DNA of 64,000 bases, taken from a virus. Numbering within the stretch: position 1 is the stretch's first letter; each line of letters opens with the position of its first letter. Shown here in pieces: positions 2,630 to 19,107 of this stretch. Location of the stretch: the IMG/VR virus record IMGVR_UViG_3300031227_000013; one strand, written 5' to 3'. A program made the position numbers and the translations under genes. The notes under the pieces were generated by a model. The model saw nothing but the letters and a program-made list of their open reading frames with translations. It was not told the DNA's origin and ran no database searches.

Positions 2630-3733
2630 TTACTGTGCATTAGCAAACCTCTGACTATATGGAAGTCTGTTCGGGTCTGTAAACTGTATTTGATCTTTAG
2701 GTATCAGATTCTGTACACCTGTAGGCCACGAAGCGTTACCCCATCCTCCCTGTGTTTGATCTACATTAGACATACGTGGGCCTATCCCTGTCATGGAACC
2801 TTGGGGCTGGAAAGGAGGCTTAGGAGGTATGAAAATATTATTTGTGGATGCCTGAGGGAACATCGGATTAGGTCTATTCATCATTCCACCCATACCGAAG
2901 CTGGAAGCTGTAGGTGTCTGCCAGTCACCGTGCCCCTGTAGTGCCCCATATAGCTGAGAAGAGGACATCGCAGGAGAAGCTTTATCTAAAGCCTCACTCC
3001 TATTATGCATATACCCTGCATAAGCTCTGTCTTCAGGTCTCGGGTACATTCTATTTGCCCGTGTAGGATTAGACTGATTCATAGCATAATTACGGACATG
3101 TCCTTTAGCTATTAGTTGTCTCTGCTTTGCCCAGGCATCCTGCATCTGTTTATATTTATCCTGCTCCTGTGTTTGTTTAAGTTGGGTCTTATCGAGCTGC
3201 GCCTGTCCCATCCCTGTGCCTATACCTGCGTCATTAGTAGGACGCATTTTTGCGATATCTTCTTTTATTTTAGATTCATTACTACTATATTCAGGAGCAG
3301 TGGGAGACTCCTGTTTATCTCTTAAGCCAGAATGAGATTGATCCATAGAACCCAGACCGGGAGTGTCTTTCTGCCAAGGATTAACCAGCCCGTATGCGGC
3401 TTTGGATGGGTCCTTAGGTGGTTTTTTACGTTTATTTACAGTTACAGGATTAGGGCTTGTATCTTTAACAGGATCTGTACGAGGGCTATATCTTTCAGGT
3501 TTATCACCTACAAAAGACTGAACATTGTGTTTAGATGAAGGGGTGCCTCCTGTAGAAGTAGTACGTCTACCTTCCGTCTGTATACCCGGACGACTGTATC
3601 TACTTCCTCTAAGGTGTCTGGATATATTACTTCTAGAGGGCTTAACTCTTTTTGTTGTTCTTGCTCCGCTGTTAAAACTACTTAAAGATTTACCCAAAGC
3701 TGTCTTTTCTAAATATTTTAATAAATAACTCAT
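2630..3733 (-). CDS. Low-complexity (Q/N/G/M/P-rich) protein, probable internal virion protein
   Basis: 367-aa ORF; N-terminal LEKTA motif; largely disordered composition. Confidence 0.6.
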   Translation of the reverse strand: MSYLLKYLEKTALGKSLSSFNSGARTTKRVKPSRSNISRHLRGSRYSRPGIQTEGRRTTSTGGTPSSKHNVQSFVGDKPERYSPRTDPVKDTSPNPVTVNKRKKPPKDPSKAAYGLVNPWQKDTPGLGSMDQSHSGLRDKQESPTAPEYSSNESKIKEDIAKMRPTNDAGIGTGMGQAQLDKTQLKQTQEQDKYKQMQDAWAKQRQLIAKGHVRNYAMNQSNPTRANRMYPRPEDRAYAGYMHNRSEALDKASPAMSSSQLYGALQGHGDWQTPTASSFGMGGMMNRPNPMFPQASTNNIFIPPKPPFQPQGSMTGIGPRMSNVDQTQGGWGNASWPTGVQNLIPKDQIQFTDPNRLPYSQRFANAQ

Positions 3734-14042: not shown

Positions 14043-14456
14043 CTAGTTGTTTCCCTTGATCTGTTTGACCAAGAAAATATTTGCACCGTCAACAACTGCT
14101 GTGTCTTCGGATACGGTACTACCATTCATCTTAATCTCAAAGCCTTCGGCGTCGAGATCTGCAAGTTCCAGTACGGCCTCAATGGTCGTGCCAGATTCAA
14201 CAGCTAATTCCGAGAGTGTTCCAGGAACTTTACCAACTGTTACTACGCATTGATTTCCTTTGATCTGCTTGACCAGGAAAATATTTGCGCCGTCAGGAGC
14301 ATCGTCTGTCAAAGATGCGGTACTGCCGTTGACTTTAATTTCGAAACCCTCTGCATCGAGGTTTCCTGCTGCCAGGGCATCTGCAACTGTAGCGCCATTT
14401 TCGACGGCTACTTCTGAAAGTGTTCCTGGTACTTTTCCTACTGTGATTTGTTTCAT
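14043..14456 (-). CDS. Tandem di-ubiquitin-like (beta-grasp, ThiS/MoaD-like) protein
   Basis: Two near-identical 68-aa units (TVGKVPGTLSE.AVE.G.T...L...L.AEGFEIK.NGST......DGANIFLVKQIKG), each ending IKG-N. Confidence 0.9.
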   Translation of the reverse strand: MKQITVGKVPGTLSEVAVENGATVADALAAGNLDAEGFEIKVNGSTASLTDDAPDGANIFLVKQIKGNQCVVTVGKVPGTLSELAVESGTTIEAVLELADLDAEGFEIKMNGSTVSEDTAVVDGANIFLVKQIKGNN

Positions 14457-14470
14457 TACTTATTCCTTTG

Positions 14471-15160
14471 TTATAACTTAAAGGTTTGTGTTATAGACAT
14501 ATATGGCCGCATGCCGTATATGATTTCGTTCTCGATTGGGTCTCCATTATTATGCTTCAGCATCTGCCAAACAGCTATTGTGGATATATTAACTGCTGTA
14601 GCAATTACTGAAACAGAAGAGCCACAGAGAGATTCTTCCGCCGTATCATCATCATATAGAGTAGCCTCCCACTTCTCTGCCTGATTAAGCATTGTCGGAA
14701 CGAAAGAATAAATTCTTCCGTTATCATCCCCCATTCTTGTTTCTACTATTAAATTAACACCGAACTTCATCTTTAGAAATTCAGTGAAAATTTCCTTACG
14801 TGAAGACATTGTATCTGTCAGGAGAAATACAATATTCCCCGGGACATATCCGCAACCCGTCTCCACTTTTTCATTGACAGCTTCTATTTCAATTTCCGTC
14901 AATTGTTTTATGAGCTCTTTAAGAGCGTCAACTTTGTACTTCCCTACATCAGACAGTCGGAACATTTGATTAGGAATATTGTGTTCTTCCACCTTATCAT
15001 AATCGAACACACGTATCTTTTTCACTCCCATCTTAGCGAGTAAATAAGCTACGTGTGAACCTGTTGCTCCAGCCCCTATTATGTCAACCTTCTTTGTAAA
15101 CAAATTAGGTTTAAAAACAGATAGCTGTCTATTATAGGAGATACTGGCAGGTATACCCAT
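14471..15160 (-). CDS. ThiF/MoeB/E1-like adenylating enzyme
   Basis: IIGAGATGS Rossmann motif, DYDKVEEHNIPNQ, GKYKVDAL, candidate catalytic Cys in ESLCG. Confidence 0.92.
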   Translation of the reverse strand: MGIPASISYNRQLSVFKPNLFTKKVDIIGAGATGSHVAYLLAKMGVKKIRVFDYDKVEEHNIPNQMFRLSDVGKYKVDALKELIKQLTEIEIEAVNEKVETGCGYVPGNIVFLLTDTMSSRKEIFTEFLKMKFGVNLIVETRMGDDNGRIYSFVPTMLNQAEKWEATLYDDDTAEESLCGSSVSVIATAVNISTIAVWQMLKHNNGDPIENEIIYGMRPYMSITQTFKL

Positions 15161-16306
15161 CAGTCAATTTCCTGAAAGGAATACTTACCGACCTTCTTAT
15201 TTTTAGGAGGACGACCTGGTTTTCTCTTTTTACCTACTTTTTTTAAAGGAGTAGCTCCTTCAACTCCATCGTCCACATTATCCAATGGGTATGTCTTATG
15301 AACATTGTTTCCTCCTACAGGTCTTCCCTGATAGCCATTATTTCCATAGCCATTAGGTGAACCACCATATCCATGCTCGGAACCATGTCCTTGAAAACCA
15401 ATCCCACTCTGGTTCATACCCTGGTGATACCCAGCGGCGTTTTTTAGGCCACCATACACCATCTTGGTAACCTTTTCCTCGATCTGTCCTTTCCAGTATT
15501 CTACCTTAGGATCATCATCTTCATTTACCTGAATACTCCATGGGGCATCCTTGAGAGCAAGCCCTATATCATACTGAAAAATAGCGAACCCATATTCGCC
15601 TTTATTGTTTCCGATACATCTTATAAAGAATCTGTTTAGAGCTCCTTCGGAACCCTTAAGATTATCAGAAAATACTTCCATCTGTGTGTTATCCTGGCCG
15701 GACGGACCAACTCCGCCGCTTATGTGTGACATTCTGTTACTTAATAACCTACTAATGTAGGCGGGTATCCAGTTTCCTGATACCTCTCTATGTCTCCATA
15801 GAGATCAGACTATCGCTCGGCCCTCAGCATTACCTGTAGGGTTCTTCTCGCTTAGTCGTTGACCGTCCTTTAAATATCTTAAAGGTTCGGCAGGATTACC
15901 CTCGGCTTTACCGTTAGGGCTTCCCCCTCAATCAGAGAAGATTTTTCTAGTGACTGTTACCAGTCACGGGGCACTCACCTACTGCTTACGCAGCGTCACA
16001 TATTTTATGCCCCCAAAGGCGAATATTATTAGCTTCATCGGTTGTCATATCTCCGGAAGTTATAAGTTCCCCCATTAATTCAGCCAGTCCATCAGGAGTT
16101 ATTTCGGTTGTTCCACCGTTAACATCCTGTTGGGGAAGAGGTAATATATTATAAACTAAAAATACATTATCCTCTTCTTTACGTACAAGACCTAACCATC
16201 CTATTTCATCATCGCAGTTATTAATTATAATGTCCATGTCTTTTTTGACCTCAGGTAGTAATACTACCGAGGGCATTCCTTCATTTAACCATTCGACTGT
16301 AGGCAT
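15160..16306 (-). CDS. JAB/MPN+ metalloprotease (deubiquitinase-like), two exons 16306-16007 and 15729-15160, 289 aa spliced
   Basis: Exon 1 has DEIGW (catalytic E) and ends RLWGH; exon 2 starts SHISGGVGPSGQD; joining rebuilds the JAMM motif E...H-S-H...S-x2-D. Confidence 0.9.
15730..16006 (-). ncRNA. Group I self-splicing intron (277 nt, no ORF)
   Basis: 5' exon ends in U (GGGGCAU) and pairs with IGS GUGCCCC (U-G at the splice site); P10 GUGA/UCAC; P2 GUGACUG/CAGUCAC; P3 UCUUCUC/GAGAAGA; P7 GACUA/UAGUC; P9 hairpins; terminal G. Confidence 0.92.
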
Positions 16307-17796
16307 TACATTATGTCCTTATCTTTATCGTCACGGTCTTTCCAAGCAACAACCGTTCCGTCCTCTTTGACCAAAGGCCATCTGTTTACATACTTACCAG
16401 CGGCATCGTCAACATTAACGTTTTCGAGGTAGAGTATACACAGAGCTGCTATGGCACTGTAGTTATGAGCTGCTCTGATCTGAGGGAGCGATTCCACCAG
16501 ATCTCCCAGACAGGGTTTACCATCAGGAAATACATGCGGAGCATGCATCCCTCTGGAGTTATATCCCGTAATCTGCTGAGTAGTATTTAACATTAGTATT
16601 TCTTTATTAACATCTGTAGGAACTTCAATACGAAAAGCTCCGACCTCGTGGTTAAGTTTCGTACGTGGGTCAATAACATATACTGTATCTGTTATTATAT
16701 GTACCCCGTCCTTAACAATCCGTACTCCTCTGACATGCTTCTGGGAATACAGGTCACGAATCATTTTGTTAGCTCTTTCATCAAAATTATTCGATGTACC
16801 TGCTTCAACCATCTGCATCTTTGCAGTACGATCTCTTAATTTAAGCGTCAAATGTCCCTGATGCTTTTCAATCTCTTTTGAAAGTTTATCAATTGTGTCC
16901 TGCAGCCCTTTATACTCGACTGAAAGAACATCCTCAACAAACTTTATCAGCCTTTCCCGATCTTTCTTCTCACGGGTCTTGGCGATATCAGCGACTTCTG
17001 ACTTGAGTTGCTCCGTTCCCAGTTGCTCTTTGAATAGCTCCAAAGATTTTCTGAAAATGGTGATTGCTGAAATGGAAGGCTTCTGAACCGCATCCCATAG
17101 AAAATAGAGATGATTCGGTTTAACATATTCCATTATTGCAACACCTGTCTTAGGATCATTAATTCCCACCCCACTGTCTGTAAGAGGGAACATAGGATCT
17201 TCACAGCCTACTTTCTTTCCGAATAGACTTGATGGAGGAATTAACTTACCATCAGCTCCGCCTATCAGACTATCTGCTTTAGGAGAAGACCATACTCTAA
17301 TATTCAGGTCATGCTCACAGTCCTCAGGAAGTTCAATATCCCCGTTAGGAACTGTAACAGATACATTCGTATATACATCCTGTAACACTTCTTCAACAAC
17401 TTTTATGAAGTCTTCACGACCACGTCCATCCCACTTATCGGGAGATGATTGTACTGTGATACTTCCAGATCCCGCACTTACTACCTCGGCCTCATTAGGG
17501 GCTGGAGGTGCAACGGGCGGTATATCTTCCAGAGGATCAGGAACTACTTCTTCAGCCGTTACTTCTACTTGTGGAGTATCATTATTGGTTCTTTCCCGGA
17601 AAGTTGTTCTTAGAAAAGAAATACCTTCAAACATTGTTCGTTCATCATTAAACTCTATATTCTGTCCCATTACCGGATGTACTTCTACCCGAGGTATCAG
17701 AAATCCGTCCACATCATTGATGTTGAATGTAGGTGAGCTACCAGCCCAGCCCAATTCAGTTAGTTTGTCTAGTTGTTCTCGTGTTACGAAATACAT
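16306..17796 (-). CDS. Multidomain protein with a C-terminal E2/UBC-like conjugating domain
   Basis: C-terminal 'FRIEVP...HAPHVFPDGKPCLGD' matches the E2 HP-x-V...G-x-x-C-L catalytic signature; preceded by a coiled coil. Confidence 0.8.
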   Translation of the reverse strand: MYFVTREQLDKLTELGWAGSSPTFNINDVDGFLIPRVEVHPVMGQNIEFNDERTMFEGISFLRTTFRERTNNDTPQVEVTAEEVVPDPLEDIPPVAPPAPNEAEVVSAGSGSITVQSSPDKWDGRGREDFIKVVEEVLQDVYTNVSVTVPNGDIELPEDCEHDLNIRVWSSPKADSLIGGADGKLIPPSSLFGKKVGCEDPMFPLTDSGVGINDPKTGVAIMEYVKPNHLYFLWDAVQKPSISAITIFRKSLELFKEQLGTEQLKSEVADIAKTREKKDRERLIKFVEDVLSVEYKGLQDTIDKLSKEIEKHQGHLTLKLRDRTAKMQMVEAGTSNNFDERANKMIRDLYSQKHVRGVRIVKDGVHIITDTVYVIDPRTKLNHEVGAFRIEVPTDVNKEILMLNTTQQITGYNSRGMHAPHVFPDGKPCLGDLVESLPQIRAAHNYSAIAALCILYLENVNVDDAAGKYVNRWPLVKEDGTVVAWKDRDDKDKDIM

Positions 17797-17959
17797 TTAT
17801 CCCTTTCTATGTTAAAATTAATTTCGTTTTATATAGATAAAGCAGATAAGGGTGGCAGGCCGTCTGGGCAAAACCCTGTTTCATGACCACCATTTTGTAT
17901 AAAAATACTCGGCCTCATATCCGCTAAAAACAATGATAGTTATATCATCTTAGTAATCT

Positions 17960-17990
17960 ATTATGCCACAAAAACGCGATAAATTAAGTT
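17960..17990 (-). promoter_or_regulatory. Recurrent promoter-like motif, copy 4, upstream of the Ubl operon
   Basis: AACTTA-N19-CATAAT. Confidence 0.65.
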
Positions 17991-18439
17991 CGAAGATACT
18001 GCTCGTCACAAGTTATCGCAACAGCTAGGGCTGAATATATATCCGACTTAAATCCTTTAAGTTTACCTTTAGGTCGTTTTCCCGGAATTAGGTCAGGTTC
18101 GAATCGATCGAGTAGCTCCTGACGTATTCCACAGTCTTTAGCGGCTCCTGTGCCGCAGATATACTTTTTCTCGTCGACACGCTTTATTCTGTAGTGTGTT
18201 CCTTTAAAAGCCTGCATACATTTTCCTATAAAGAAACAGGTTTCAAAAGTCTCTTTTCCGACTCGGGCTCCATACGAACATATGGTCTCTATCGCCATTA
18301 CATCAGCCTGTCCACCTTCTACAATACCCAGCATTCTCTCATTACTTATTTTACCGAATGCATAAATTTCCTCTGTCTCATTATTATACGTAACATACCC
18401 AGATTCCGTAGTTCCGGGGTCTACTCCTAATATTATCAT
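17984..18439 (-). CDS. ruvC: RuvC-like Holliday junction resolvase
   Basis: MIILGVDPGTTESG (D), AIE (E), C-terminal DIYSALAVA helix. Confidence 0.8.
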   Translation of the reverse strand: MIILGVDPGTTESGYVTYNNETEEIYAFGKISNERMLGIVEGGQADVMAIETICSYGARVGKETFETCFFIGKCMQAFKGTHYRIKRVDEKKYICGTGAAKDCGIRQELLDRFEPDLIPGKRPKGKLKGFKSDIYSALAVAITCDEQYLRT

Positions 18440-19107
18440 GTCATTACCTTTCTTCCGGGAATATACACCTCTTCATCACTTGTTCTTCCCAGTATGTTTT
18501 TTAGTATTTCATCCATCATTACCGTATTCTGTTCCGCCACTGTATACGGACCCATCTTACAATCATACTCTTCCCCCAGCCGGTCTTCGTAATTAGTATT
18601 CAGAGGACACCGATATCCGGAAGACGCTTTCTTACTTACAAGCTTGCATATGTCCTTAAGAGGCCCTTTAAAACTAGCTAGAGTTTCTCCAAAAGATCTA
18701 CGTACAGATTCGTAGTCAGATATAGCCAGGCAGGGCTTGTAGTTCATGTACTCTTTCAGCCCGACCCAACTATTACCGGCTATCAGCTTTCTGTTCCACC
18801 AGTCATTATTGTATACTATGTAGGATATGTTATTCTCCTGCATAAGCCCGACCAGTTTATTTTCTACTACTTCGGGCAGGACAGCCTCTGCATAATAACT
18901 GTTGATAGATATTCCGGTATACTGCATGTTGCCCCTTACATTACCTCCCAGAACATATTCGTTATACAGAACTCCTTTAAGCATATAAGCTACCTGAACA
19001 ATAGCGGCGTCTGCTTTTACTGAATCAGACGCCATGTTCAATACTATATAATTATCAGGATCCTGTACCCCTGCCTTCTCTTTAAGAAACTCCCTGATAA
19101 TACCCAT
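18436..19107 (-). CDS. DnaQ/DEDDh exonuclease-fold protein with degenerate active site
   Basis: YIVLNMASD (ExoI position), AAIVQVAY, YTGIS, IVYNNDWWN (ExoII position) follow the DnaQ pattern with the acidic ligands replaced. Confidence 0.5.
   Translation of the reverse strand: MGIIREFLKEKAGVQDPDNYIVLNMASDSVKADAAIVQVAYMLKGVLYNEYVLGGNVRGNMQYTGISINSYYAEAVLPEVVENKLVGLMQENNISYIVYNNDWWNRKLIAGNSWVGLKEYMNYKPCLAISDYESVRRSFGETLASFKGPLKDICKLVSKKASSGYRCPLNTNYEDRLGEEYDCKMGPYTVAEQNTVMMDEILKNILGRTSDEEVYIPGRKVMT

Follow-up and report, generated by a model that had tools for sequence, protein, structure and literature searches.

We propose, with a probability of about 85%, that a 277-nt element in the genome of an uncultured phage is a genuine and structurally intact group I intron, a selfish insertion that has no open reading frame (ORF) of its own and that lies between the His codon and the Ser-His codons of a gene for a JAMM/MPN+ peptidase. 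The element occupies positions 15730..16006 of the 64,000-nt stretch analysed here (the window), which corresponds to bases 50,901-114,900, read on the reverse strand, of the 185,256-bp IMG/VR virus record IMGVR_UViG_3300031227_000013, a record that has direct terminal repeats and is rated 100% complete. The interrupted gene, JAB, is the second of four genes in a ubiquitin-like protein (Ubl) operon, which follow one another closely, head to tail, at ~14.0-17.8 kb of the minus strand and encode a 496-aa protein, JAB, a ThiF-type E1 and a tandem Ubl; all features of the window discussed below, the intron included, lie on this strand. The identification draws on a covariance-model match, on a hand-drawn secondary structure and on intron-less homologues of the host gene.

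The intron, its exons and the splice junction

The Rfam model RF00028 matches 16040..15786 with a score of 58.9 bits, above its gathering score of 50 bits, and with an E value of 2.2e-12 for the window and of 1.5e-15 for the genome. Relaxing the threshold to E<=0.1 brings up no further Rfam match in the window, and RF00028 matches the 185,256-bp genome nowhere else. The Rfam alignment is good from P3 to P9, ends after P9 and gives no splice sites, and the ends of the intron were taken from hand pairing and from the homologues, which together define a phase 0 intron. Exon 1 ends at 16007 with ...TGG GGG CAT, encoding Trp-Gly-His, the last base of the intron is a G at 15730, and exon 2 begins at 15729 with TCA CAC, encoding Ser-His. 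The intron has a G+C content of 46%, compared with 39% for the window, and on its own strand it contains no ORF of 20 aa or more. Its minimum free energy is -103.2 kcal/mol, compared with -72.7 +/- 4.6 for shuffled sequences (z = -6.6; none of the 200 shuffles reached this stability), and the unconstrained fold recovers P1, P2, P6, P8, P9, P9.1 and P9.2.

The two exons flank the element as the two parts of a single peptidase domain. Exon 1 (16007..16306; 100 codons, M...RLWGH) covers positions 24-119 of a profile built from 46 family members and holds the catalytic Glu, in DDEIGWLG, and the first zinc-ligand His, while exon 2 (15160..15729; 189 codons plus the stop) aligns from profile position 120 and holds the second His, the Ser and the Asp of the JAMM motif in the form SH-x7-S-x2-D. 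Joining the exons in silico gives ...RLWGH-SH-ISGGVGP-S-GQ-D with the Glu of DDEIGWLG kept, and the resulting 289-aa product matches the family profile as one 170-bit domain that has no gap at the junction, the N-half stopping at profile position 119 (His) and the C-half starting at position 120 (Ser). The spliced product retains 13 of the 14 residues that are invariant in the family, among them the E, H, S, H, S and D; the one that is lost is a Met, replaced by Gly. Because the invariant residues are retained in both exons, the exons appear to be maintained by selection, for which splicing is needed.

Without splicing, the exon-1 frame enters the intron for six codons and stops at a UAA (15988..15986) located in the GUAA loop of a hairpin, giving a 106-aa ORF (16306..15986), and the ATG-started ORF that contains exon 2 runs from 15732 to 15160 and encodes 190 aa. 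No Shine-Dalgarno-like purine run is found in the 15 nt preceding this final AUG of the intron, so independent translation of the C-half looks unlikely. Gene callers give precisely these two ORFs, and each alone is without a Pfam family match, which is what would be expected if two adjoining genes were separated by a structured spacer that only resembles an intron by chance. This reading is effectively refuted by the covariance match at E 2e-12, by the abutment of the two halves at profile positions 119/120 inside the invariant H-S-H, and by the homologues, all of which are single genes. Two of them, P0001 (326 aa) and P0002 (345 aa), were recovered with a word-index search of longer proteins using exon 1, and both contain an unbroken RLWGHSH followed by S-x-QD; the gene order at the P0001 locus (L005) matches that of the phage operon, with a 554-aa gene, JAB, ThiF and a 68-aa gene. 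Exon 1 and exon 2 protein queries in IMG/VR returned only three matches (L002-L004), and these were discarded as spurious matches to a low-complexity stretch of a 1853-aa protein.

The initial annotation of this DNA, made from the sequence alone, had placed a group I intron at 15730-16006 between the two JAB histidines, and the minus-strand reading and the intron-less homologues show those coordinates to be exact. The intron itself is borne out by the covariance match, the base-exact junction, the family invariants and the fold match of the homologue P0001, and the Rfam group I models that the annotation had named as a check do yield a match above the gathering score. Its statement that splicing restores WGH-SH...S-x2-D is upheld by the in silico join and by more than 90 intron-less homologues in which the motif is unbroken, and its further points, that all core pairings can be drawn, that the intron has no internal ORF, that unspliced RNA encodes a 106-aa N-half and that the last AUG of the intron is in frame with exon 2, agree with the helices described below, in which every named helix contains standard pairs only and the terminal G is present, and with the reading frames given above.

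The identity of the host gene was approached through P0001, which shares 38% identity with exon 1. When P0001 was used as the query of an exhaustive phmmer search, 3,688 cluster representatives (50% identity) were obtained at E<=1e-3, the best 150 of which are nearly all ~300-350 aa long, and in the alignment of 46 members the residues E42, W103, H105, S106, H107, S115 and D118 are invariant. The E...H-S-H-x7-S-x2-D motif is present in the phage protein after splicing, and the same columns are invariant in the 46 members. Matches to the Pfam families Prok-JAB (PF14464) and JAB (PF01398) are all sub-threshold, with P0001 at E 0.084 and with three of the 46 members at E<=0.01, the best at 6e-4; the family profile searched against Protein Data Bank (PDB) sequences found BRCC36 only, at E 0.8, in an alignment that brings the E, HSH, S and D into register. 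P0001 was modelled with AlphaFold from the 46-sequence alignment, with a mean predicted local distance difference test (pLDDT) score of 86, and a Foldseek comparison of the model with the PDB returned CSN5, Rpn11, P. furiosus JAMM1 (template modelling (TM) score, by target, 0.77) and a Caldiarchaeum Rpn11 homologue (TM 0.75), with E values from 1e-9 to 1e-6. The evidence for an MPN fold in the phage protein thus comes by homology from P0001, and its motif and this modelled fold mark the host gene as a divergent member of the JAMM/MPN+ peptidases. Members of the family were found in at least 80 IMG/VR contigs and in 20 contigs of metagenome-assembled genomes (MAGs), including those of Saccharibacteria, Oscillospiraceae, Bacteroidaceae and others, and a tblastn search with P0001 against 50,697 GenBank phage records gave no match. 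The C-terminal tail of the phage JAB (15163..15450) is rich in Gly, Asn and Tyr and has a basic KKRKPGRPPKNKK end resembling an AT-hook; the tails of the homologues are unrelated.

Secondary structure of the intron

Sixteen helices (P1, P10, and P2 to P9.2) were written by hand, and a scripted check of each pair found standard pairs only. The last seven bases of exon 1, GGGGCAU (16007..16013), form the 5' strand of P1 with GUGCCCC (15974..15968), a helix that is also in the minimum free energy fold, and the final base of exon 1 makes the U.G wobble at the 5' splice site (pair U-1.G33). The internal guide sequence (15968..15978) consists of this GUGCCCC for P1 and of GUGA (15978..15975) directly 5' of the P1 strand, which pairs with UCAC of exon 2 (15729..15726) to form P10. 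Within the 32-nt loop of P1 there is a hairpin of 5 bp with a GUAA loop (15981..15994), and P1 is followed by P2 (15950..15967), with 7 bp and a GUAA tetraloop, both of these stems being found in the pair check and in the minimum free energy fold.

The catalytic core is drawn from the Rfam alignment together with the pair check. P3 (15843..15941) has 7 bp formed by 15941..15935 with 15849..15843, and it encloses the P4-P5-P5a-P6-P6a domain (15927..15863) and the 5' strand of P7 (15857..15853), with the A-rich joining segments J4/5 and J5/4 reading GAAG and UAA, respectively. The following segment (15808..15841) comprises P8 (15841..15821), J8/7 and the 3' strand of P7, UAGUC (15812..15808), giving P7 as GACUA/UAGUC, in which G150-C199 is likely to be the guanosine-binding pair. 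The 3' peripheral stems and the tail before the terminal G (15731..15805) were located by the pair check and the minimum free energy fold, and include P9 with 7 bp and a GAGA loop, P9.1 with 8 bp and a GAAA loop, and P9.2 with 5 bp; a P9.0 of 2 bp may precede the terminal G. In all, four loops in the intron are of the GNRA type.

The gap between P7 and the 3' strand of P3 (P3') is only 3 nt (AGC), and the distance from P7 to P7' is 47 nt, which leaves no room for P7.1/P7.2. These stems, which are expected of subgroup IA2, the usual phage type, are absent from the intron, and judged by its pairing it differs in this respect from a typical IA2 phage intron.

Intron-less alleles, relatives of the intron and its mobility

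No insertion was found at the site in 70 IMG/VR family loci, with one uninformative (cut off by a contig end, it begins only downstream of the site), or in 20 MAG loci, again with one uninformative for the same reason, and 10 further IMG/VR loci, obtained with a degenerate DNA pattern for DEIGWLG (118 loci matched, 10 of them family members), are all unbroken. Among 52 distinct intron-less alleles the 15 nt encoding WGHSH follow TGG GGN CAY / WSN CAY, with 10 positions invariant, and in these aligned sequences the intron occupies the best-conserved DNA of the JAB gene family. Homing sites usually lie in conserved DNA.

Candidates for split alleles among short proteins related to P0001 turned out to be contig-end fragments or frameshifted genes only, with no exon-like halves. 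Two family members, at L115:1773-2670 and L116:3001-3512, were called as two ORFs each with too little room for an intron, and these splits are probably frameshifts or sequencing errors, one shortly before HSH and one just after. The protein P0153 was also considered as a variant allele and was rejected, as its contig (L008; an ENA ERZ27315840 contig of 2,669 bp from another sample) folds back at a 12-nt inverted repeat. This contig is 100% identical to 18563..16015 of the window, and the fold-back (2538-2669 of the contig) occurs at ATATTCGCCTTT, which is found in exon 1 (16016..16027) and, inverted, in exon 2 (15591..15602). After the turn the contig is the reverse complement of exon 2, ending 6 nt before the 3' splice site, and the folded-back 132 nt contain two mismatches compared with none in the remaining 2,549 nt. 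The fold-back looks like a chimeric low-coverage tip, the alternative being a real inversion.

Searches for relatives of the intron itself recovered only parts of it. Among the 50,697 GenBank phage records the operon DNA gave no match and the intron DNA a single one, of 41 nt in P4-P5, in Vibrio phage qdvp001; exact and gapped patterns of the intron core, and the end of exon 1, gave no match in viral, metagenome and genome contigs. An 18-nt P5 motif led to 36 viral introns, all of which share part of the intron only, and additional stems separate P7 from P3' in each one that was measured. The closest are introns in lysin genes of Staphylococcus-like phages, on ~40-kb viral contigs, with 81% identity over ~95 nt to the P3-to-P7 half of the present intron, and the terminase intron of qdvp001, with 88% identity to its P4-P5 segment. 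These relatives hold 40-75 nt (P7.1/P7.2) between P7 and P3', where the present intron has 3 nt, and its P7-to-P7' distance of 47 nt is the shortest of the set, compared with 68-111 nt in relatives in which both strands were located.

In L092 (10019-12897), and likewise in L084, L088, L091 and L101, all ~40-kb viral contigs, a CHAP/amidase lysin gene is interrupted by a group I intron (83 bits), and the lysin intron carries a 208-aa HNH-type ORF, which begins upstream of the Rfam match and extends into its 5' part. In qdvp001 (L007, NC_029057.1) three separate coding sequences are annotated for the terminase large subunit, and two unannotated group I introns lie between the pieces, at 2435-2668 and 3030-3261, with Rfam scores of 72.6 and 90.6 bits; an annotated endonuclease gene is directly upstream.

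The initial annotation had taken the intact intron to indicate that the operon is conserved enough for homing, and this found no support: there is no endonuclease gene in the intron or within 26 kb of it, and no close phage relative with or without the intron was found. The intron-less alleles that it had proposed to look for exist, in that ~100 related loci are unbroken, but none of them supplies a close intron-plus/intron-minus pair. HNH_3 and GIY-YIG domains have no match anywhere in the phage genome, and the sole HNH and LAGLIDADG_3 matches of the genome, at G000:C1:125555-125623 and G000:C1:182947-183177, lie ~26 kb and ~84 kb from the intron in open frames of 325 and 344 aa, which by their domain matches could be free-standing or intein-borne homing endonucleases. 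As the intron is now without an endonuclease of its own, it is most likely a stranded element or one that was moved in trans. Some ORF-less group I introns are thought to be moved by free-standing endonucleases in what is termed collaborative homing, in T7-like and T-even phages. The present intron resembles these in being compact, in having no endonuclease of its own and in lying in a conserved coding motif, and it is unlike them in that no endonuclease gene flanks it.

Several considerations weigh against an intact, splicing intron in a JAMM gene. The RF00028 score exceeds the cut-off by only ~9 bits, the model places its own P1 on exon sequence, and J8/7 (CCGAGCGA) deviates from the model consensus at several positions. 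No whole-intron relatives were found, and thus there is no covariation behind the helices; the history of the intron likewise lacks a close intron-plus/intron-minus pair, and we infer splicing from structure alone. For the host gene, membership of the JAB family is based on the motif and on the fold of the homologue that is 38% identical to exon 1, with Pfam Prok-JAB sub-threshold. Some of these features would also be seen if the ribozyme were inactive and JAB a two-piece pseudogene, leaving the operon without a peptidase: the Rfam score is modest, J8/7 is atypical, P7.1/P7.2 are missing whereas the nearest sequence relatives all have extra stems, and the failure to find a homing endonuclease gene or relatives is as for an element late in its life cycle. 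We regard such a dead intron as very unlikely, since the helices are perfectly paired, with the four GNRA loops, the U.G wobble, P10 and the terminal G intact, since the exons have open frames in register and retain 13 of the 14 invariants, which would be unlikely in a decaying gene, and since a tandem Ubl whose repeats end in ...G-N would presumably be useless without a peptidase to trim it. Because both exons are kept intact, we infer that the intron splices in vivo.

Splicing and the ubiquitin-like operon

All elements that the two-step group I reaction calls for are present in the sequence, and joining the exons at these exact ends makes the active site whole. By the established group I mechanism, an external guanosine held in P7 would attack the 5' splice site, the terminal G (15730) would then replace this guanosine, and the 3'-OH of exon 1 would be joined to exon 2; the guide sequence pairs with the last seven bases of exon 1 in P1 and with the first four bases of exon 2 in P10. 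On unspliced RNA the ribosomes would halt six codons into the intron and yield an inactive N-half, and an active peptidase would need splicing.

The genes that surround JAB are tightly arranged. Upstream, the gene for the 496-aa protein (16306..17796) overlaps the ATG of JAB by 1 nt at its stop (TAATG). The 496-aa protein has no Pfam or PHROG match, and the Atlas gives unnamed viral clusters only; genes of similar size (520-554 aa) occupy the same position at three other family loci (L005, L115 and L116). A tentative E2-like label for the 496-aa protein is based on a ...HAPHVFPDGKPCLG... motif. At the intron-less locus L005 an HNH_3 endonuclease gene (2665-3156) adjoins the 554-aa gene on its upstream side. 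Downstream of JAB, the ThiF-type E1 gene (14471..15160; Pfam ThiF E 2.2e-20) overlaps the JAB stop by 1 nt at its ATG (TGATG), which is preceded by a weak AGGAAA run, and it is followed by the gene for the tandem Ubl of 137 aa (14043..14456; Pfam ThiS E 3.4e-6), which consists of two ~68-aa ThiS/SAMP2-like repeats, each ending in ...FLVKQIKG-N. In its sequence the tandem Ubl is reminiscent of a polyubiquitin-like precursor, one that would have to be cut after Gly.

The operon shares its set of Ubl, E1 and JAB with the Bil (BilABCD) anti-phage systems, and in Bil the JAMM enzyme BilC pre-processes its Ubl (10.1101/2023.09.26.559546). By analogy with this JAB enzyme, the Ubl repeats of the phage probably need trimming by the peptidase, and with the Ubl trimmed by JAB the output of the pathway would depend on splicing. 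The trimming of the tandem Ubl ends in ...G-N and the coupled translation of E1 would probably likewise depend on it. Unlike the bacterial Bil systems, the operon described here is encoded by a phage, its JAB is very divergent and its Ubl is tandem. To our knowledge, no intron is known in Bil genes.

In an alternative reading, in line with the view of the initial annotation that splicing could time activation of the whole pathway, the intron has been co-opted as a regulatory gate, its rate of splicing setting the timing and amount of JAB and so the output of the Ubl pathway. The arrangement of the operon is compatible with such a gate, in that the start and the stop of JAB each overlap a neighbour by 1 nt, so that unspliced RNA, with its stop inside the intron, could yield less E1, in that both Ubl repeats end in ...KQIKG-N and probably need trimming as in Bil, and in that the stop of the exon-1 frame lies a short way before the guide sequence, a position at which translation and RNA folding might influence each other. 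Nevertheless the gate appears very unlikely to us: the intron shows no sign of conservation, and the pathway works without it at the ~100 related loci, a weak AGGAAA run of its own precedes the E1 start codon, and placement in the most conserved stretch is predicted by selfish homing alone. It is correspondingly doubtful that the rate of splicing, perhaps modulated by translation stopping before the guide, decides when conjugation-competent Ubl appears in infection. That ~100 related loci are without the intron speaks for an add-on and against a working part of the system, and the intron is probably not an evolved regulator. The selfish insertion, with splicing that would permit JAB to be made, remains our preferred account of the element.

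Phage group I introns favour genes of nucleotide synthesis and DNA metabolism, as a 2025 paper restates (PMC12350094). Among the known examples are those in td, nrdB and nrdD of T4, in the DNA polymerase genes of Bacillus SPO1-type phages, in lysin and structural genes of Staphylococcus Twort/K-like phages and in the terminase gene of a Vibrio phage. The present intron has in common with them its in-phase insertion in a coding gene at a highly conserved active-site motif and an exon-1 frame that ends early in the intron, but unlike them it has no internal ORF, and its host gene encodes the JAMM peptidase of a Ubl operon whereas theirs serve nucleotide metabolism, replication, lysis or structural functions. 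A full-text literature search found no paper that ties a group I intron to a JAB/JAMM gene, and the view of the initial annotation that a JAB host is unusual holds for the literature searched: the element is of a familiar selfish kind, in a host gene for which we found no report there.

Recognition of the intron has consequences for how the locus is read. Gene callers would break the peptidase into two hypothetical ORFs, and with the intron recognized the JAB-E1-Ubl set, together with a possible E2, is restored. As a compact ribozyme of 277 nt, the intron has a P3-P7 half in common with IA2-type phage introns and no P7.1/P7.2 domain, and its position in the zinc site of a Ubl peptidase broadens the list of phage group I intron targets. 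Finally, an intact intron together with well-kept exons provides indirect evidence that the Ubl operon of this phage is expressed and selected.

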